The notes under the pieces are model-generated. The model searched no databases. It saw only the letters and a list, made by a program, of their open reading frames with translations, and was not told where the DNA came from. A stretch of DNA of 60,386 bases, filler included, from Squatina squatina (Eukaryota), in NCBI GenBank assembly GCA_031763465.1. It is 3 parts of 3 records of this genome, joined end to end, with 100 filler letters (N's around TTAATTAATTAA, not from the genome) between each part and the next. Parts side by side here need not be neighbours in the genome. Positions count along the whole stretch, not along the records: positions 43,548 to 60,386 come from JARFOE010000057.1; 2 more parts are not named here. The stretch is one strand, 5' to 3'. Both the position numbers and the translations under genes were made by a program. Position 1 is the stretch's first letter; each line of letters starts with the position of its first letter. This document shows, piece by piece, positions 10,898 to 60,386 of the stretch.

Positions 10898-11522
10898 GCC
10901 GCCTTCTGGGTGAGATGTTAAACTGAGACCCCATCTGCTCTCTCCGGTGGATGTAAATGGTCCTACTGCATAGTTCAAAAAAGAGCGGGGAGTTAACCCT
11001 GGTGTCGTGAGCCAATATTTATCTGTCAACCAACATCTCCGATTAACTGATCATTTATCTCATTGCACAAGCTTGCATATGGCACATGACTGGACGAGTA
11101 CGGTTTTGAGGATTCAGTAACAAGCACTGGGATTCAAAGTGACTGAATGTGATGGGTGACTGCTTCTGTGAACCGCCGCTAATGCGGCGATTGCTGCTCT
11201 GCAGATGAATTGAAATCCCCTCTGGAATGTGTCTGTGGAATGCTTCTCATTGCCAAATTGTTATCACATGCTGATTGATGGAAGTATTTACTGGCAGATG
11301 TCGACATGTTGGCTATTTATTTTCAGCCACAGGTCAGCTTGCGAGACGGGATTTTTTTTGTGAGCGTGGGGTGGGATTGTAAGAGGTAAAACTGCAGCAG
11401 TTTGGAGAATTTTATGCAATCCNNNNNNNNNNNNNNNNNNNNNNNNNNNNNNNNNNNNNNNNNNNNNNNNNNNNNNNNNNNNNNNNNNNNNNNNNNNNNN
11501 NNNNNNNNNNNNNNNNNNNNNN

Positions 11523-11869
11523 GGTACCGACCCTCCTGCCAGTGGAAGCTGATTCTCCCTACCTACTCTCTCAAATCCCTTCATGATTTTGAACACCTCT
11601 ACTAAATCTCCCCTTAACCTTCTCTGCTCTGAGGAGAACAATCCCAGCATTTCCAGTGTCTCCACATAACTGAAGTCCCTCATCCCTGGTGCCATTCTAG
11701 TAAACCACGTCTGTACCCCCTCCACGACGTTAACAGCCTTCCTGAAGTATGGCACCCGGAATTGAACACAATACTCCAGCTGGGGCCTAACCAGTGTTTT
11801 ATAAAGGTTTAACATAACTTCCTTGCTTTTGTACTCTATGCCACTATTAATAAAGCCAAGAATTCGCAA
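11523..11869 (-). mobile_element. CR1 LINE RT C-terminal fragment
   Basis: LYKTLVRPQLEYCVQF...LGLFSSEQRRLRGDLVEVFKIMKG. Confidence 0.9.
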
Positions 11870-43624: not shown

Positions 43625-43772
43625 CTGTGGAAAGCGAATCACAGCCATGGTCAAACAGCTCTCCAAGAGGACTGCTGCTATTGGTTCTTCTTGCCTGCTT
43701 CCCATCTATAGCGTCGAGTGTCTGGTAGATAAAAAGGCCCAGTGCACAGGCTAGGTATGCCCAGAGAGGTGC
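43625..43772 (-). CDS. CEPT1: Choline/ethanolamine phosphotransferase 1 exon (CDP-alcohol phosphotransferase motif)
   Basis: ctctgcag|148 nt|gtagc encoding [55 protein letters not shown] and NSSSP favour CEPT1 over CHPT1. Confidence 0.88.
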
Positions 43773-45009: not shown

Positions 45010-45093
45010 AACTGCACTTCTAAATTAGAGGAATTTTTCAATTCGAAGCTGTACATGATTGGAGTGGTGGGAATCGGGATTGCGGGAGTGATG
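45010..45093 (+). CDS. TSPAN2: Tetraspanin exon (end of large extracellular loop plus TM4), TSPAN2-like (CD9/CD81/TSPAN2 group)
   Basis: tctccgcag|84 nt|gtaagg encoding NCTSKLEEFFNSKLYMIGVVGIGIAGVM (human TSPAN2 NCIDEIETIISVKLQLIGIVGIGIAGLT). TSPAN2 neighbours NGF in mammals. Confidence 0.72.
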
Positions 45094-45452: not shown

Positions 45453-46364
45453 CTGCCCTTGCTGCTGCCCATTGCCCACTTGTTGCTGCTGCTCGGCCAG
45501 CTCGGTGATGAGAGTCACAAAATAAGGGATAACAGAAATCACATCGATCACATTCAGTATGTTCCTGAAGAAGTCGGACTTGCTGGGGCAAGATGCAGAC
45601 CTGACCAGCAGCTCGAAGGAAAACCAAAGCATGCACATGGTCTCGATGAGAAAGAAAGGGTCGGTGAAGGCGCTGGGACTGGGGCCAGTGCTTTGGCTGG
45701 AGTTGGTCGAGCTTCTGGGGGCGCCCAGGTCAGAATCTTCCCTGAACTCAGGCAGGGTCTCCAGGCAGAAGATGATAATAGAGATGATGATGACAAAGAC
45801 GGAGACCAAAGCCACCCCCCGGGCTGCCCCCGAACTCTCGGGATACTCGAGCAGCAGCCACAGTTGCATGGACATCTCCTGCATGGGGAGCTGTACCTCC
45901 AGCTCCTTGATGAACCCCTCCTCTTCCCTGAACTGCTCCATGGCATCAGAACCCAGCTGGTAGAATGTGATTTCATCCGCAAAGACATCCAGGGGCACAT
46001 TGGCGGGTCTTCGAACCTTGCCCCCAGACTGGTAATAATACAGAATCCCATCGAAACTGGGCCGGTTCCTGTCAAAGAAATATTGGTTGGTGAGGGGGTC
46101 AAAGTAGGGCAGGCGACGTAGGGGGTCTCCCAGCAGGGTGTCCGGGAACTGGGCCAGGGTCTTCAGCTGGGTCTCGAACCTCATGCCGGCTACGTTGATG
46201 ATAACTCTCTGACTGCCCTCCTGCTCCAACAGCTGCTCCATCTCCTGCTGGTGCTCACAGACCAGCTGGCTCAGCAAGCTGTTGGGGAGGCTGTCACAGT
46301 CCAGCAGCTTTCTCCATGTGGACAGCAGGCTCGAACAGCTGGCACGGGGCTTCGACCAGTTCTC
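45453..46364 (-). CDS. KCNA10: Kv1.8/KCNA10-like Shaker channel, partial (N-terminus, T1, S1-S3), cut by gaps at both ends
   Basis: Open for 304 codons. KCNA10-type motifs: [44 protein letters not shown] and YFVTLITEL. Confidence 0.8.
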
Positions 46365-46970
46365 NNNNNNNNNNNNNNNNNNNNNNNNNNNNNNNNNNNN
46401 NNNNNNNNNNNNNNNNNNNNNNNNNNNNNNNNNNNNNNNNNNNNNNNNNNNNNNNNNNNNNNNNGTTATAGAACAAAAGGCTTTCTAAGATAAATAGATA
46501 ACCAGCAGAATACTGAACAAGGAAATTAATGATAGGACAACATGAACCAGCAATGATTAATGTATAACTTTAGTGACAGATTGTAATAAACAGAGCCAAA
46601 GAGATCAATTATCTGTGGTATAGACAGGATGTTTCAATAAATAAGCTAAATTGAGCTATTCCTGTGGAGGACTCCATGGCTTCTCTCTAACTCCAGCTAC
46701 ACATGTCCTTGTCAGATACAGGGACAAAACTCTCCTAACTAATTTGCTTTACTCTAAAGTTGGCACCACCTTATACAAGTGATTAAGTGCAGCAGTGAGA
46801 TGTGATCGGAATGTGTAGGGATGGTTGAATAGGACACAGTTACTGTGTGAATGTTTTACGCTCTGATACAGACACTAAAAGCTACACAGACACTGAGCAG
46901 ACCATAAACAAGAGAGCAGTGAGAAAACCCGAGCTGTGCCCCTGGTGTGGGACCTGTGGCCATGATACAC

Positions 46971-47305
46971 TCACACATCACTCCGCAACTTGGTGATGTT
47001 CACATAGTTGGGGTTTGATAAAGTGCAATTGTCAGTGTGAAGATTGTGATCGGGGGGGTCCCGAGCATTGCCCACCCGCTCCTGGGCCTCCGTGTACTCC
47101 GACTTGCAGATGCTGGAAGTGCTGTTGCTCTTCTTCAGATCAGCGGTGGATGGGATGGTCGGGCAGCTCCTCACATGCAGGTATTGGGCCTGTTCCTCGT
47201 TCTCCGTCTCCCGGTGGTAGAAATAGTTAAAGTTGGAGACTATGACGGGCACAGGGAGTGCGATGGTCAGCACCCCCGCGATGGCACACAGAGTCCCCAC
47301 CATCT
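46971..47305 (-). CDS. KCNA2: Kv1.2/KCNA2-like channel, S6 and C-terminus (partial)
   Basis: [43 protein letters not shown]...[19 protein letters not shown]; aligns to the KCNA2 tail [23 protein letters not shown]...NYVNITKMLTDV. Confidence 0.8.
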
Positions 47306-47405
47306 NNNNNNNNNNNNNNNNNNNNNNNNNNNNNNNNNNNNNNNNNNNNNNNNNNNNNNNNNNNNNNNNNNNNNNNNNNNNNNNNNNNNNNNNNNNNNNN
47401 NNNNN

Positions 47406-47662
47406 TGTCCTGGATGGTGTCGAGCTTCTTGAGTGTTGTTGCAGCTGCACTCATCCAGGCAAGTGGAGAGTATTCCATCACAGTCCTGACTTGTGCCTTG
47501 TAGATGGTGGAAAGGGACTCAGGACGTGAGTCACTCGCCACAGAATACCCAGCCTCTGACCTGCTCTTGTGGCCATAGTATTTATGTTGCTGGTCCAGTT
47601 AAGTTTCCGGTCAATGGTGACCCCCAGGACGTTGATGATGGGGGATTTGGCAACGGTAATGC
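47406..47662 (-). mobile_element. LINE RT fragment
   Basis: LSTIYKAQVRTVMEYSPLAWMSAAATTLKKLDTIQD. Confidence 0.85.
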
Positions 47663-48517
47663 CTCTCTTTCAGAGAGCCAGAACAGGCACAATAGGCCCG
47701 ATGTCCTCCTTCTGCGCTAAGTCAGTTCCCATAAATATTTGGATTGAATGCTTACTGTCACTAACCCTAACAAAATATAACATAGTGACCCTCAGGGCAA
47801 TTCCAACCACATGGATGGGATATGGATTTATTTACAATGAACCCAATTTAAACTGACCAGCAGGGAAAAATACATCTGTAGAATTTAAAAACATAAAGAC
47901 CTTCTTATGATTATGAAATATGATGAATCACCCCATTTGGTATAATGGCCAAACTAAAAGTAATTATCTCCAGAAACATGTGGAGGCCAGAGAAGGCAGC
48001 AAGGGAGGAGGAGGGGGAGGGAGGGGGTGCGCGCTGATGCCAGTGGCTTTCATGGTAATTATATATATTTTTAAAATGATATAACCATTCTGTCCAACCC
48101 CATTGGTTGAGCCTTTGTCCCTCAAAACTGATGGACGGAGTGCTGAACCAATCACATAGTTGGTTAAGAACCTGGTCCATCATATTTGAGGGACATTGGA
48201 AACTTTACTTCATAAATCAGATTGTCAGGATGGATGATATCTGACTTTTTAAAATTGGGCTCCAATTTAAGAAAAAAGAACTGCGGACTGAAATTATCTA
48301 ACATTTTGTGAAGTCCTTGGATTTAAAAGTCTAACCAATCCTGGAAAGTTAGTGATTAACCTCGCCTATATCCTAATTGTGAAGTCTACTCAAGCTTAAT
48401 CAGCAAATGAATGCAAGAGATTCCAGTAATAACTGTGGCTGCAATAAAACAAAAGTGGATCACACACCTGGATTGGAATCTGGTTGGATTGCACAAGGGG
48501 GATGGAAGGGAAGGAGA

Positions 48518-48862
48518 GAAGAGGAAGAAGATGAGGAGTCCCAGCTCCCTCATGCTAGCCTTCAGTGTCTGTCCAAGGATCTGCAGCCCTTTGGAGTGTC
48601 TGGAGAGCTTGAAGATCCTGAAGACCCTGACCAGCCGGATGACCCGCAGGATGGCCAAAGACATGGCCTGCTGCCCTTGCTGCTGCCCATTGCCCACTTG
48701 TTGCTGCTGCTCGGCCAGCTCGGTGCCCAGGGTGATGAAGTAGGGGGTAATGGCCACGATATCAATGATGTTCATGATGTTTTTGAAGAAGCCAGGTTTG
48801 CTGGGGCAGGAGAAAAATCTCACCAACAGCTCGAAAGAGAACCAGACAATGCACAGTGTCTC
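48518..48862 (-). pseudogene. Isolated Kv1 (KCNA2/KCNA3-like) S2-S5 fragment embedded in non-coding DNA; pseudogene fragment or assembly chimera
   Basis: [34 protein letters not shown]...[49 protein letters not shown]. Homology stops abruptly at both ends with no gap and no credible splice sites. Confidence 0.6.
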
Positions 48863-49483
48863 AGAGTTGCTGTATCTATTCCAGTTCAGTCTTTGGTTTT
48901 AATAAGCTCACTGCCACTGCATTAAATTTTAATAAAGAACCGTTGGTAGTACTAGATTGGTGAAGGGAAGGCTTGTAACACTAATGAAGCTGTTGTGTGA
49001 CTTTACTGGTGTCTACAAACATCATGGGAGAACACTGTTTGTAGAGTTAAGGAAGCAAGTAGTAGCATGGTAACAGTAAGTGCCATAAATTGTCCATAAT
49101 AGTGATTTAACTGGAAATACTGCATTATCATCTGTAGCCTAAACTGAATAATAGCCTGGAACAGTTAACAGGAACAGAAAGAGTTGAAAGAACAATTATT
49201 GTACCATGCAGGAACTTACTCCAGCCGAGTGGCTCCTAAACACCGTCAAAAGCCTCTTACCAGAAAATACAAGTAACAAAGCTACAAGACTTAGTTTGAC
49301 TGCAAGCATTTAAAATGTGCTTGTAAAATGTTCAGAACTTTTCCTTGGGGGTAATTTTAACTTTTAGCAGTGGTATAAAATGGCTGATTCCAGACTGGCC
49401 ATCCATTATACATAATATAAAGAATGGAATCTCATTTTCCTTTTTTATAGTCTTTTCTGCCTGCACTCTCACCTTTAAAGTCT

Positions 49484-52758: not shown

Positions 52759-53466
52759 TCAAGGTTTCCATGTTTTCCTGGTGAGAACGCAGACACAGGC
52801 GGTCCTGATCCTGATGTAGTTCCACCTGATGTGGTTGTGGTCCAGCACCAGCGCTTGGACATGGCTGTCGGTGGTGTCACACTGAGAGTTCCAGTGTCGG
52901 CCGTCGATGCCCCGACAGCCCTGGCTCGTGGGTTTCCTCTTGCGGCAGGTGGTCTCGTAAAACAACTGTCGGACCAGCGTCCCGTTCACGTAGAACTGCG
53001 AGACCACTTCCACCGCTCGGCCCCGAATGTCCAGGGCGCCCTTCTTGTCCACGACCCAGTGGTGCTGCCTGTCGCAGACTGAGAACTGGCCCTGGAGACG
53101 CACCCCCTTGACCTGGCGCTTGAGACGGAGGCTTCGCTGGGATGGCGGCCGCCCAGCGCTGGGGCCGCCGGCCCAGGGACCGCCAGCGGACTGACTGTGG
53201 AACCGGACTCGGGACGAATGCGAGGGTCGGCTTTGGAACACGTGAGGCTCCACATTGAAAGGTGGGAAATCATTCATCCTCGGTCTCGTTCCACCTGCCA
53301 GGCTGTGAGGGGCAGGGGGGGACCCTGGGGGGCTGCGTGTGGGGGTCCTGTGCCCACGGCCCCATGGCGTGGAGTGCAGCACCGCAGCAGCATTGTCAAT
53401 CCTTGGTGAGGCCTCAATGGCACGGAGGGAAACGGTGAGGAGAACACAGCAAAAGACGGACATCAT
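52759..53466 (-). CDS. NGF: Neurotrophin precursor, highly divergent NGF (235 aa; 118-aa mature domain after RLKR)
   Basis: Single coding exon (acceptor ccctttcacag|, exon starts 53474) with a signal peptide, NGF-like prodomain (VEPHVF..SSRVRF), furin site RLKR, six cystine-knot Cys, GCRGID..HWNSQC and IRI.TACVCVL. It aligns without gaps to NGF rather than NT3/BDNF/NT4, and has an NGF-like 3'UTR and synteny. Confidence 0.82.
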   Translation of the reverse strand: MMSVFCCVLLTVSLRAIEASPRIDNAAAVLHSTPWGRGHRTPTRSPPGSPPAPHSLAGGTRPRMNDFPPFNVEPHVFQSRPSHSSRVRFHSQSAGGPWAGGPSAGRPPSQRSLRLKRQVKGVRLQGQFSVCDRQHHWVVDKKGALDIRGRAVEVVSQFYVNGTLVRQLFYETTCRKRKPTSQGCRGIDGRHWNSQCDTTDSHVQALVLDHNHIRWNYIRIRTACVCVLTRKTWKP

Positions 53467-53719
53467 TCATTCACCTGTGAAAGGGAAGTAGAAGCTCAGT
53501 GGCCATTAAGCGAGTCCATTAATTGTGAGCTACGAAAAGCACATAAATACTCCCACATTATACCTGCTTACTTGGCTAATGGAAAGGCTGCTGCTGACTC
53601 CACTTGTGCAGAGATTTAGCTGTCAGGAGTTGGCAGTTCATTTCTGCAACCTCAGAAGCCACTCTCACTACATTGCTAGTCACTATCAGAACACTGAAAG
53701 ATTGGGCCACTGATCTCCA

Positions 53720-55525: not shown

Positions 55526-55636
55526 TTAAATGCCTATCGAGCGTAAAACTCTCTTCTCTTTTTCATTGAGGTGATCAGAAAACGGCGTGTAGCAGGGCTG
55601 TTGTGCAAACTGACGGAGGTAATCGGTTAGATATGC
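55526..55636 (-). CDS. IPO9: Importin-9 last coding exon
   Basis: tttaatttcag| then [36 protein letters not shown] (human [36 protein letters not shown]). Confidence 0.95.
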
Positions 55637-57246
55637 CTGAAATTAAAAGACAGGATCAGTAAGCATTCACATAAAATATTAGTTGCAACCCTTTCACACT
55701 GGCCTTAATCCTTTTCATTTTACAATGTGCTCCAACACCATGCTGTGTCGTTCAACTGCCACTGTCAGCCATTTGGAGGGAATTTATTTTGTGAACATGG
55801 TGGGATTCTGTGCAGGCCACTTTCCAATTGGGCTGAACAACTCTGATTCATCAGGAGGGACAACATACCCTGCAGAGACATAGTCTCTCGAGAGCTCTCC
55901 GCCTACCAGCTGCCTACTTTTAGCAGTGTTTTTTTTTTAAAGTGAGTCCAGGGCTTTGTCCTGCACCATAATTCCTGACAACCCATTCCACCTGCGTGTA
56001 AAGAAATATTTTCTGATGACTTCTCTAAATATGCCCCTCACCCAGAGTTCACCATGGCGCCCCCCCACCCCCCCCACCGTGTCCTGCTGCTCCAGTGTNN
56101 NNNNNNNNNNNNNNNNNNNNNNNNNNNNNNNNNNNNNNNNNNNNNNNNNNNNNNNNNNNNNNNNNNNNNNNNNNNNNNNNNNNNNNNNNNNNNNNNNNNN
56201 NNNNNNNNNNNNNNNNNNNNNNNNNNNNNNNNNNNNNNNNNNNNNNNNNNNNNNNNNNNNNNNNNNNNNNNNNNNNNNNNNNNNNNNNNNNNNNNNNNNN
56301 NNNNNNNNNNNNNNNNNNNNNNNNNNNNNNNNNNNNNNNNNNNNNNNNNNNNNNNNNNNNNNNNNNNNNNNNNNNNNNNNNNNNNNNNNNNNNNNNNNNN
56401 NNNNNNNNNNNNNNNNNNNNNNNNNNNNNNNNNNNNNNNNNNNNNNNNNNNNNNNNNNNNNNNNNNNNNNNNNNNNNNNNNNNNNNNNNNNNNNNNNNNN
56501 NNNNNNNNNNNNNNNNNNNNNNNNNNNNNNNNNNNNNNNNNNNNNNNNNNNNNNNNNNNNNNNNNNNNNNNNNNNNNNNNNNNNNNNNNNNNNNNNNNNN
56601 NNNNNNNNNNNNNNNNNNNNNNNNNNNNNNNNNNNNNNNNNNNNNNNNNNNNNNNNNNNNNNNNNNNNNNNNNNNNNNNNNNNNNNNNNNNNNNNNNNNN
56701 NNNNNNNNNNNNNNNNNNNNNNNNNNNNNNNNNNNNNNNNNNNNNNNNNNNNNNNNNNNNNNNNNNNNNNNNNTCCCCAACCCGTCTGCAGTCTCTCTCT
56801 CTCCCTTCCCCACCCCGACTGCAATCTCTCTCTTCCCTCTTTCCCCACCCCCGTCTGCAATACTGCTAATTGGGGAGACGAGATCTGTTCCTTTGCAAAC
56901 CGTGCTGTCTATTATTTATTCAATTATTTTTATACACGTACTGTTTCCGATTATTGATTACCTGGTTAAATCAATAATCGGAATAATCCCCAATTATTGA
57001 AGTCAGCTCAAGGGGGGGGGGTGTAGTTCCCAGATTCGGCTCTGCTAACCTTTTTGAAAATGGAAACTATATTTGCCCGATTCCAGTTTTTTGGAAGCTC
57101 CCCAGTGTTCACTGACTCCCTCAAGATGAACACCTGTGCTCCACAAATCTCAGTATTATTTATCTAAAATCTCTGCCGCACTGATGTCAAAATTAACCCC
57201 CCCCACAACCCCCGTCTCACCCTATTTAATGAAGAATCCTAATTAC

Positions 57247-57323
57247 CTGTAAGTCAACCTGATACAAGGGATCCTTCAGAGTGTCTGGATCATCTTCATC
57301 ATCCTCATCATAATAGTCATCAT
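57247..57323 (-). CDS. IPO9: Importin-9 penultimate exon
   Basis: aaacag|77 nt|gtaatt encoding DDDYYDEDDEDDPDTLKDPLYQVDLQ; phases fit both neighbouring exons. Confidence 0.95.
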
Positions 57324-58849
57324 CTGTTTAAATACAGCACACCATTATTGACCCTAACAGCTTCAAATAGGTGCAATATATCAGTATCTGTAGAAATGAC
57401 CTCTCATTATTCAACCAGTCAATAACATCCAAGTACTGAGTCATTAATTAACCGTCCCAACTAATGAGAAATGATTAATGCTAAATTACACTAAAGATGA
57501 TTTAGACTTTGAAATGCTGCTGTCCTGTCCCTCTGGGTGACCGATCCTTTTAAATCAGTGGGAAGGTTGAGGATTCCCGGTCAATTTATGNNNNNNNNNN
57601 NNNNNNNNNNNNNNNNNNNNNNNNNNNNNNNNNNNNNNNNNNNNNNNNNNNNNNNNNNNNNNNNNNNNNNNNNNNNNNNNNNNNNNNNNNNNNNNNNNNN
57701 NNNNNNNNNNNNNNNNNNNNNNNNNNNNNNNNNNNNNNNNNNNNNNNNNNNNNNNNNNNNNNNNNNNNNNNNNNNNNNNNNNNNNNNNNNNNNNNNNNNN
57801 NNNNNNNNNNNNNNNNNNNNNNNNNNNNNNNNNNNNNNNNNNNNNNNNNNNNNNNNNNNNNNNNNNNNNNNNNNNNNNNNNNNNNNNNNNNNNNNNNNNN
57901 NNNNNNNNNNNNNNNNNNNNNNNNNNNNNNNNNNNNNNNNNNNNNNNNNNNNNNNNNNNNNNNNNNNNNNNNNNNNNNNNNNNNNNNNNNNNNNNNNNNN
58001 NNNNNNNNNNNNNNNNNNNNNNNNNNNNNNNNNNNNNNNNNNNNNNNNNNNNNNNNNNNNNNNNNNNNNNNNNNNNNNNNNNNNNNNNNNNNNCATGCAC
58101 TCACCTCTACCTAATAAAGTGGGACAGCATGTTGCTGTGGATTTATCTATGGACTGGCATCACAATTGACCAAAATGATCAACAATTCAAGTGGAGAAAC
58201 CAGAATTTGTCAGCTTCTCCTCGCTGCTTTTTTCTCCTGCTACTGAAGTGCTCAAGATTTGACAGTCGAACACTGCTTCCAAAACACCAAATTGAGTCAC
58301 AACAGAGGAACACGGGCTGTACTTCTGATGGCTTAGTACAGCAACATCCAAACATTTATAGCAGTGGGCCAGAATCGGTGTGCCACCATTAGAAAGTGGG
58401 CCACAAATAGTGAACTCACTTTTAAGTCAGATAGAATTATAATCATGGCAACTAGTTTATCATGGCTGAATAAGTGCAATTGGTTTCTATTACATTAAAT
58501 TCTAGAAATTTTACTGGTACTTGGGGATCACATTCATTATAATTAAGATCACTGGTTTATGGTGACCAAATTAATCAAATTCAGCTTCCGTTACAAAGGA
58601 TTTGGGTTTTATTACTAGTCCTTGGGGAATCCTATTTCGTGAGTCCATTCATTTTCCATGAAACCTGCAAATCTGTATCATGATTGAACACCACTTCCAA
58701 TCTATTTTGTGCTTTTTGGAGTCACTGAATACACTTCCCACCTCCTTCAAGTCTGTCTATCCATCCTCCTCCCACCTTGCTATTTTACCTTTCTCTTGTT
58801 TTTTTCACTTTTCCTTTGTTTGTTCCTTTTGAAATGCTGTTGAGCTGTA

Positions 58850-58940
58850 GTGTCTCCTGACTCTGAGGAAGGATCCTGGATCGAAGGGGTGACATGCTTT
58901 CTCTCAACAGATGCTGAATGCCTCCAGCGGTTTGTTTTGT
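58850..58940 (+). mobile_element. Degenerate Penelope-like terminal fragment
   Basis: ctctgaggaaggatcctggatcgaa...tctctcaacagatgctg. Confidence 0.45.
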
Positions 58941-59212
58941 TACCCATAATTACTCACTTAAAAAATTCAACAGCAATCTTTTAATACTCAAGCAAATAAT
59001 GGCTCCAAATATTACTCACATCTAGGAGAAAAGCCTAACAGAGTTTGATGAATTATAAAACATGGCAATCTCCAGGAACAACAGACAATTAGACCGGCAC
59101 CACAGTGATCCTGACAGTAAAGTAACACATGATATGCACACAAAAGCAGGCAGCTGAATAACATGCCAAAAAACCTAGAGTTGGATGATTAAAAATAGTT
59201 GGAGCTTCTTAC

Positions 59213-59326
59213 CGTATCGAACGCCTGCCCCGGGGTTGAGCAGGTCTGATAACAGCTGTCCCGCTAGACCCTCATCATCCTCTTCCTCATCGTCATCCTG
59301 GTCCTCCCACATGTCATTAACTTCAT
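59213..59326 (-). CDS. IPO9: Importin-9 acidic-loop exon
   Basis: tattcag|114 nt|gtaaga encoding [38 protein letters not shown] (human [27 protein letters not shown]). Confidence 0.93.
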
Positions 59327-59528: not shown

Positions 59529-60386
59529 ATTGGCAAAATCCTCTTGTTTTGCGAAGACAGACGCAAGGTACTCATTTAATACCTCAGCTTTCACAAGAAG
59601 ATCTCCTTTTTGGTCGCTAATCAGTCCACCCTTCCTTTGACTACGTTTTTACTATTTATATGTTTATAAAATACTTTTGGGCTCCTTTTTGTTGTTAGCC
59701 AATCCATTCTCAAACTCTCTCTTTGCCCTTCTTATATCCCTTTTTCAGATCTCCTCTGTACTTTCTATATTCAGCTTGGTTTGCTACTGAATTATGAACC
59801 CAACACTTGTCATAAGTCTCCTTTTTCTGCTCCATTTTAATCTCTTTAGCCATCCAGAGAGCTCCAGCCTTGGATGCCCTTCCTTTCCCCCTCGTGGGAG
59901 TGTGTCTGGTCTGAACCCAAACAACCTCATTTACCATCTTACCTGCCAACCTTTGATTCCAATCCACCATAGCCCGATCTGTTTCAACTCACTGAAATTA
60001 GCCCTCCTCCATTGAGTATTTTCGCATGTGATTTTTCCTTGTCTTTTTCCATAACTACTGGAAACCTAATGATATTGTGATTGCTGTTTCCCGCATGCTC
60101 CCTCACTGAAACATGCTCCACCTCATTCCCCAGAACTAGATCCAGTACGCCTTCCTTCCTCGTTGGGCTGGAAACACACTGATCAAGAAAGTCTCTTGTA
60201 CACATTTCAGGATTTCATCCCCCTTTTTGCCCTTTACACTGTTATTTTCCCAGTCTATATTAGGAGAATTGAAGTCCCCCATTATCACAACTCTAAAGTT
60301 CTTGCATCTTTCTGCAATTTGCTCCTTGAACCTCCTTCCCATTATTTGGTGGCCTATAGTTACCACCCAGCAGCGTAATAGCTCCT
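59529..60386 (-). mobile_element. CR1 LINE ORF2 fragment (endonuclease to linker), frameshifted
   Basis: VVIMGDFNSPNIDW; LDQCVSSPTRKEGVLDLVLGNE; AEVLNEYLASVF. Confidence 0.9.

Follow-up and report, generated by a model that had tools for sequence, protein, structure and literature searches.

The NGF gene of Squatina squatina, a divergent and constrained chondrichthyan orthologue that lacks arginine 100

A complete gene on the minus strand of a 60,386-nucleotide stretch of DNA from Squatina squatina (assembly GCA_031763465.1; the whole stretch is hereafter called the window) is the chondrichthyan orthologue of NGF, and not an extra neurotrophin. The long branch that leads to cartilaginous-fish NGF is real and old, but comparable to that of teleost NGF/NT-7, and the amino acid changes along it are real, largely fixed and constrained. 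The most probable account is that cartilaginous fishes carry a single NGF orthologue, a working TrkA ligand with p75 as co-receptor and with compensated surfaces, whose divergence arose mostly on the stem and has been under purifying selection since. The gene has already been published, as have its identity of about 52% with human NGF and its effect on PC12 cells, and the Squatina gene is a known gene: Callorhinchus NGF was described in 2011 (PMC3280201), the low identity of catshark NGF in 2023 (PMC10253963), its activity in 2025 (PMC11993139) and shark NGF loci in 2026 (PMC13663574). The lead that is left is position 100, where cartilaginous fishes are without the arginine whose loss blunts human pain. 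Statements from the literature refer to the accessible portions of the papers cited.

Results

An intact precursor gene in a fragmented scaffold

The open reading frame translated from the window (Table 1) is interrupted by neither stop nor gap, and the precursor is complete, as the original prediction had it; that prediction ended the mature domain at 53112, one codon short of its true boundary after RLKR. Furin acts at basic sites of this kind. As in neurotrophins generally (PF00243), the product is a single-exon prepro-protein with a basic cleavage site, of which R114 and R117 are invariant in the ten chondrichthyan rows, and with a mature domain of six cysteines and cystine-knot fold (Pfam E 2.3e-40, model and Foldseek). 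An AlphaFold model of the mature domain, made from a 34-row alignment, has a mean pLDDT of 89.5, with residues 1-9 below 50; its best structural match is mouse NGF (4xpj, rmsd 1.1 A over 105 columns), and rmsd values against several NGF chains are 1.1-1.9 A. An in-frame TGA lies directly 5' of the first ATG (53461-53476, minus strand), leaving only the short NGF precursor open; in the mammalian rows and Callorhinchus the reading frame continues through the acceptor region where Squatina has this TGA.

Table 1. Features around the NGF gene, in positions of the window
Feature	Coordinates	Strand	Evidence
Prepro-NGF coding exon, single, 235 aa + stop	52759..53466	-	ORF; Pfam NGF E 2.3e-40
Pyrimidine tract and splice acceptor AG, 8 nt 5' of first ATG	53475..53495	-	Sequence
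Hydrophobic signal-peptide-like N-terminus, residues ~1-19	53410..53466	-	Read from translation; cleavage site inferred
NGF/NT-7-type pro-domain motif, residues 72-89	53200..53253	-	Profile scores and alignment
Furin-type cleavage site RLKR	53116..53127	-	Translation
Mature NGF, 118 aa, NGF numbering 2-119, cystine-knot fold	52762..53115	-	Alignment and model
Asn100 (AAC), HSAN V position, p75 contact	52819..52821	-	Alignment; p75 table in PMC10045213
Arg98, p75 contact A98 in mammalian NGF	52825..52827	-	Alignment; PMC10045213
Asp84 in place of zinc ligand/TrkA contact His84	52867..52869	-	Alignment; PMC8700322, 10.1101/2025.02.27.640519
Arg105 in place of zinc ligand Asp105, charge-swapped with Asp84	52804..52806	-	Alignment; PMC8700322
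Importin-9, last three exons (59213-59326, 57247-57323, 55526-55636)	55526..59326	-	Last exon matches Importin-9, E 2.8e-11
Three pieces of Kv1 (KCNA) genes	45453..48898	-	Sequence matches
CD9/TSPAN2-like tetraspanin exon	45010..45093	+	CD9 E 0.003, CD81 E 0.005 (weak); AG/GT borders
CEPT1 exon	43625..43772	-	Pfam E 5.7e-8; CEPT1 98.8 vs CHPT1 92.6 bits

The 3' exons of importin-9 lie upstream of NGF, and KCNA, CD9-like and CEPT1 exons lie downstream. Two of the importin-9 exons (59213-59326 and 57247-57323), read from the sequence, are ones that we take to belong to this gene; the importin-9 stop codon and the coding exon of NGF are some 2 kb apart, with one 100-N join in between, and no upstream NGF exon was identified. 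The search with the tetraspanin exon placed six repetitive light-harvesting chains above the CD9/CD81 matches. This content (KCNA, CD9/TSPAN2-like, IPO9) agrees with a 2026 survey, in which shark NGF loci adjoin IPO9 and CD9/KCNA (PMC13663574). Order and distances are unsure because 46 N gaps interrupt the scaffold, the majority of them exactly 100 bases long; the CEPT1 exon (minus), the tetraspanin exon (plus) and the KCNA halves (minus) are interleaved across 100-N joins between 43625 and 47305, so that the order of contigs is unreliable.

Two Kv1 pieces (45453-45507 and 48671-48725, minus strand) share an identical run of 55 nt in a Gln-rich S3-S4 linker, which sits in a 192-nt match of 77% and, in one of the copies, is cut off by an N gap; the cause would be either gene conversion among KCNA genes in tandem or collapse of the assembly. 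A KCNA S2-S5 fragment (48389-48898, minus strand; Pfam Ion_trans E 1.8e-25) is embedded in non-coding DNA, is bounded by an N gap at neither end and has a frame that breaks at its 5' end; it is either a pseudogene fragment or a mis-join. A LINE-like retroelement fragment occupies 60139-60384 (minus strand; endonuclease domain E 5e-8), and the translation of 11288-11815 (minus strand) is presumably another. Bases 1-43500 yielded no convincing gene, only weak Pfam matches below curated cut-offs. The Pfam scan covered 525 stop-free, N-free frames of at least 45 aa; the short IPO9 and tetraspanin exons escaped it and were found by reading.

Orthology to NGF

Profile scores of the mature domain barely part NGF (125 bits) from NT-3 (122 bits), and orthology was therefore tested in four ways, by trees, the pro-domain, the neighbourhood and a search with coelacanth NGF. 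Identity of the mature domain is about 51% to NGF, NT-3 and BDNF alike. In a mature-domain tree (59 rows, 121 columns) the ten chondrichthyan rows cluster together (100/99) as the sister group of bony NGF/NT-7 (99/95). In a tree of pro-domain plus mature domain (45 rows, 189 columns) the chondrichthyans join NGF at 100/100, their branching broadly follows the species, and the row nearest to Squatina is that of the sawshark Pristiophorus (98/97), a placement from which the host is probably a squalomorph. Both trees omit partial records and most invertebrate and divergent NT-4 records, and the paralogue labels on unnamed rows were assigned from their sequences. A forced union with NT-3 was rejected (p-AU 0.018); a forced union with BDNF/NT-4 had a log-likelihood 17.5 lower and was not rejected (p-AU 0.10). 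With chondrichthyan sequences included, the gene groups with NGF in both trees, the placement that had been foreseen.

The pro-region of Squatina NGF scores 13.8 and 15.2 bits on the tetrapod-type and teleost NGF/NT-7 pro-domain profiles, respectively, and -2.2, 1.4 and -3.8 bits on those of NT-3, BDNF and NT-4; all ten chondrichthyan pro-regions score best on the NGF/NT-7 profile. NT-3 identity is ruled out by the rejected union and by this profile. So is identity with teleost NT-6 or NT-7: the insert after the second cysteine, visible in NT-7 rows, is absent, and the alignment to solved NGF chains is gap-free, both as originally described. Homologue searches returned one named sequence each in eight sharks and in Callorhinchus, with mature identities to Squatina NGF of 75-82% and 64%, respectively, in these matches and of 73-84% and 64-65% overall, and the catshark genome is reported to hold four neurotrophins (PMC10253963). 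With coelacanth NGF as query, no chondrichthyan name occurs among the best 120 of 394 matches (down to 66% identity; 19 unnamed).

Sequence features of the mature domain

Between G10 and K115, Squatina NGF is identical to whale NGF at 54 of 106 positions. Human NGF (PDB 1sg1_A) differs from whale NGF at 6, 26 and 117 only, and the count applies to human NGF as well because K26 of Squatina matches neither, which reproduces the hand count of the original prediction. All nine substitutions that it listed (R9Q, E11Q, S17R, Y52L, H84D, F86H, K88Q, R100N and D105R) are present, but its description of these sites as highly conserved fits some better than others. Among 107 of the 108 named bony NGF/NT-7 rows (the gar row, whose mature start was not parsed, and five unnamed mammal- or amniote-type records were left out), S17 and R100 are invariant and H84 (100 rows), E11 and F86 (99 each) and Y52 (97) nearly so, whereas R9 (91), D105 (83) and K88 (78) vary, with Asn105 in 22 rows, Arg88 in 21 and Asp84 in three snake NGFs.

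The SSHPIF segment is indeed replaced, but ray-finned fishes in our alignment also lack it, and as ray-finned NGFs are likewise without the HPxF segment, we rejected the replacement as a peculiarity of sharks. W21, I31, R103, the six cysteines and basic residues at 32 and 34 are all kept in Squatina; a basic residue at 32, however, is not class-wide, the ten chondrichthyans having Arg in six cases, His in three and Leu in one. The domain is as rich in Arg and His as had been noted, with 12 Arg and 6 His in residues 10-115 against maxima of 8 and 5 in the 107 bony rows, and its net charge is +8 against a bony NGF median of +4. Both the tetrapod-type HPxF patch and the His84/Asp105 zinc site are absent. 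Of 65 positions conserved in at least 90% of bony NGF, Squatina NGF departs from the consensus at 20, each bony row at 8 or fewer and six paralogue rows at 11-19; this consensus was drawn from the bony rows and favours them.

Rate and constraint

In the mature-domain tree the chondrichthyan stem measures 0.54 against 0.25 for the bony stem, and from root to tip Squatina measures 1.09, coelacanth and tetrapods 0.39-0.68, and teleosts, whose rows are biased to divergent ones, 0.92-1.30. The chondrichthyan stem is the longest inner branch of the pro-domain plus mature tree (1.48), which leaves the rooting of the NGF clade undecided. Relative-rate tests (uncorrected) with NT-3 outgroups indicated faster change than in non-teleost bony NGF, with values below 0.05 in seven of eight comparisons; none of four fell below 0.05 with a BDNF outgroup, and none of nine against teleosts. 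It is on these tests and the root-to-tip lengths that the branch is judged comparable to that of teleosts. The trees and per-site counts thus bear out an NGF whose branch is long and whose fixed changes fall at sites that are conserved elsewhere.

Squatina NGF is 65% identical to that of Callorhinchus, and whale NGF 67% to that of killifish. Across the ten chondrichthyan rows, Callorhinchus included, 50 of 107 mature positions are invariant, and 16 positions, each fixed in nine or more of them, depart from the bony consensus. Among nine sharks identity is 81.6% in the mature core and 48.5% in the pro-domain, which speaks against the loss of constraint implied by the earlier suggestion of a relaxed ligand; the N-terminal segment is 40% identical among sharks. 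For other vertebrates a dN/dS of 0.067 has been reported (PMC13663574), and among seven of the nine NGF foreground clades of that survey none is chondrichthyan.

Receptor contacts

Contact lists came from the p75 interface table of PDB 1SG1 (PMC10045213) and, for TrkA, from passages of a simulation preprint (10.1101/2025.02.27.640519), the TrkA list being incomplete in consequence. In TrkA, the partners of E11, H84 and R103 are R347, Q350 and N349. Within residues 10-115, 19 of the 34 listed p75 contact residues differ in Squatina NGF. None of 17 tests for enrichment of changes at contacts fell below 0.05 (the closest being 0.06, 0.066 and 0.079): p was 0.41-1.0 over all positions (four tests), 0.06-1.0 over conserved positions (four), 0.08-0.71 in a larger set (six) and 0.07-0.66 for fixed shifts (three). 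Sites on the TrkA list trend towards change (6/11 vs 14/54, p 0.079), and 4 of the 16 fixed shifts fall at TrkA contacts (p 0.13) and 5 of 16 at p75 contacts (p 0.66). Receptor-contact enrichment was accordingly rejected, and with changes not concentrated at contact positions the notion of a remodelled receptor-binding surface loses its footing.

Activity of the catshark orthologue

Our catshark row, P0008 (229 aa; 56/108 = 51.85% identity), was tied to the published catshark NGF XP_038676845.1 by name, by length (PMC13663574) and by percent identity, the published value against human NGF being 51.85% (PMC10253963). The transcript cloned for the PC12 work, XM_038820917.1, probably encodes this protein, the numeric offset between the two accessions being as in another catshark pair. 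Catshark NGF is reported to elicit neurites in rat PC12 cells, a qualitative result in which some cells had differentiated after 9 days of CMV overexpression; the accessible text gives no dose-response and no TrkA phosphorylation (PMC11993139). P0008 shares eight of the nine flagged sites with Squatina NGF, six identically (Q9, Q11, D84, H86, N100 and R105) and two with similar residues (K17 and H88); at position 52 it has Met against Leu in Squatina, and K32 is also lost. Skate DRG neurons express ntrk1 with ntrk3, trpv1 and tac1 (PMC13621994). Because catshark NGF shares these changes yet gives PC12 neurites, and skate DRG expresses ntrk1, a working TrkA ligand is favoured, and the dependence on a divergent TrkA that had been envisaged is not. 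NGF and NTRK1 were both unrecovered from the Amblyraja radiata genome (PMC10253963, PMC13663574), yet the little skate expresses ntrk1 (PMC13621994); batoid NGF is absent from the homologue set used here.

The zinc site and position 100

In mouse NGF, His84 and Asp105 bind one zinc ion (PMC8700322). Squatina NGF has Asp84 and Arg105, a charge swap, and the two residues are predicted to stand in register across a hairpin (model strands 75-92 and 95-113, register read by eye). The other proposed ligands, His4 and His8, are absent as well, Leu8 (53095-53097, minus strand) thus completing the loss of all four; the catshark has Pro8, and 8 of the 10 chondrichthyans and 94 of the 107 bony rows retain His8. 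We infer that the zinc site has been lost in Squatina NGF. Asp84 arose separately in three snake NGFs (P0265, P0272 and P0278), and two afrotherians combine Tyr84 with Asn105; from such sequence comparisons, positions 84 and 105 appear often to change together.

At position 100, every one of the 107 bony NGF/NT-7 rows and 17 of 18 NT-3/BDNF/NT-4 rows have Arg, and all ten chondrichthyans have Asn. Position 98 is Arg or Lys in all ten and Ala or Ser in all 107 bony rows; the basic residue may be a local compensation for Asn100. In humans R100 is mutated in the pain insensitivity HSAN V (R100W); it is about 90% buried against p75, with a salt bridge to D75, and its substitution raises the p75 KD from 1.53 nM to 6.44 (R100A), 9.58 (R100V), 25.9 (R100Q) or 125 nM (R100E), while TrkA is spared (R100Q 1.63 against 0.94 nM; PMC10045213). 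R100W/E reduces PLC-gamma1 signalling and nociception and keeps trophic activity (PMC3046150). Since substitutions of R100 cut p75 affinity and spare TrkA, Asn100 points towards a painless-type ligand and away from the p75 bias that had been proposed; by analogy with the human mutants, it suggests weaker, not stronger, p75 binding. Searchable literature, that is, outside subscription journals and figure alignments, yielded no mention of Asn100 in sharks; the alignment in Figure 1B of the 2023 catshark paper may show it without comment (PMC10253963).

Discussion

On the account that we consider most probable, NGF of Squatina would be made as a prepro-protein and cut after RLKR, and the mature form would fold as a cystine knot, as sequence and model indicate, and dimerise as the family does. 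By analogy with the catshark orthologue on rat cells, it would be a target-derived agonist of TrkA that uses p75 as its co-receptor. Most divergence would have arisen once, on the cartilaginous-fish stem and spread over the whole domain, and have been held since by purifying selection. The change from H84/D105 to D84/R105 across the hairpin, and R100N with A98R, would be local compensations, and a kept core (W21, I31, G33, R59, R69, T83, R103, V109 and R114) would carry receptor binding.

Other readings of the gene differ in how far the evidence reaches them. That it is an extra NGF-derived neurotrophin, the first part of which the original prediction had entertained, or a misplaced NT-3, BDNF or NT-4 paralogue, is highly improbable and largely refuted: the near tie of mature scores, the even identity to three paralogues, the one AU test that did not reject and the fifth neurotrophin of Callorhinchus (which is, however, NT-4-derived; PMC3280201) are outweighed by the trees, the pro-domain motif, the coelacanth-query search, published inventories and the neighbourhood. 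It is also very unlikely that the gene is relaxed or decaying because C-fibres are few. Its long branch in both trees and the seven of eight rate tests would fit, as would very low expression in catshark brain (PMC10253963) and the failure to find NGF in the Amblyraja genome (PMC10253963, PMC13663574), but NGF is intact in ten of ten chondrichthyan rows, nearly half of its mature positions are invariant, the 16 shifts are fixed rather than variable, divergence from Callorhinchus resembles that between whale and killifish, and neither the BDNF outgroup nor comparison with teleosts gives a rate difference.

The remaining alternatives concern receptors. A rewired specificity, in which NGF changed in step with a divergent TrkA ectodomain in sharks, or moved towards TrkC, and is only a weak cross-agonist of mammalian TrkA, draws on fixed changes at the TrkA contacts E11, T81, H84 and F86 (list from 10.1101/2025.02.27.640519), on the N-terminal segment, variable among sharks and of low confidence in the model, on skate ntrk3 neurons that mostly co-express ntrk1 (PMC13621994), and on shark NTRK1 models without ectodomain, a full one not having been recovered in six genomes (PMC13663574). 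The same survey allows that such partial models may be assembly gaps; the PC12 response (PMC11993139), the non-significant TrkA-contact enrichment and the lack of the HPxF segment in ray-finned NGFs too also weigh against this specificity change, which we think rather unlikely. A retuned ligand, a TrkA agonist whose mature form binds p75 weakly through loss of R100, K88 and K95, would differ from the preferred account on p75 only and amount to a naturally occurring counterpart of painless NGF (R100W/E), with trophic activity but poor sensitisation; it too is unlikely, if a little less so. The contrast at position 100 between chondrichthyans and both bony NGF and the paralogues argues for it, as do the burial of R100 at the p75 interface with the rise in KD of R100Q (PMC10045213), the trophic yet less nociceptive R100W/E (PMC3046150) and the few unmyelinated fibres of elasmobranchs (PMC13621994, PMC2780683). 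Against it, contact 98 became basic in every chondrichthyan, the fixed shifts show no enrichment at p75 contacts, 21 of the 107 bony rows also have N95, and the p75 of sharks may have changed together with its ligand. The p75 ectodomain is acidic, and the raised net charge should help binding to it. Small substitutions, moreover, cost little (R100A, R100V; PMC10045213), and skate DRG contains ntrk1/trpv1/tac1 neurons (PMC13621994).

The broadest form of this idea, which we hold to be unlikely, is that a painless-type NGF was fixed in cartilaginous fishes before the split of sharks and chimaeras, with R100, K88, K95 and the zinc site lost, so that trophic TrkA signalling was uncoupled from p75-dependent sensitisation, contributing to an A-fibre-dominated, C-fibre-poor sensory system. 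Either way, a whole vertebrate class is without an arginine that is retained in bony NGFs and that, when mutated, makes humans insensitive to pain. A natural painless NGF, if true, would bear on the debate over shark pain and on NGF drug design; the alternative outcome would show how a conserved receptor interface is compensated.

Comparison with known systems

The closest counterparts are the other chondrichthyan NGFs, among them those of Scyliorhinus canicula (XP_038676845.1, 'neurotrophin-7-like') and Callorhinchus milii (UniProt F1BZW6), which belong to the same clade (100/100) and the same neighbourhood. Squatina NGF has D81, D84, H86, N100, R105 and Q9/Q11 in common with the catshark, whereas L8, V23, A35, L52, Q79 and H94 are found in Squatina only (positions 2-118), and its precursor, with a slightly longer pro-domain, has 235 aa against 228-231 in other sharks. 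With tetrapod and coelacanth beta-NGF, its orthologue, it shares the six cysteines, W21, I31, R103, the fold, the pro-domain motif and the furin site, but at about 51% identity it lacks HPxF, R100 and His84/Asp105 and is more basic. Teleost NGF and NT-6/NT-7 fall in the same clade, and have a non-mammalian N-terminus, a C-terminal Trp117 and a comparable root-to-tip length; the insert is missing from Squatina, and teleosts keep R100 and mostly H84. In human R100W (HSAN V) and the engineered painless R100E the arginine is missing at the same position, but the Squatina residue is Asn, neither Trp nor Glu, and the rest of the protein is about 50% diverged and carries a new basic residue at 98.
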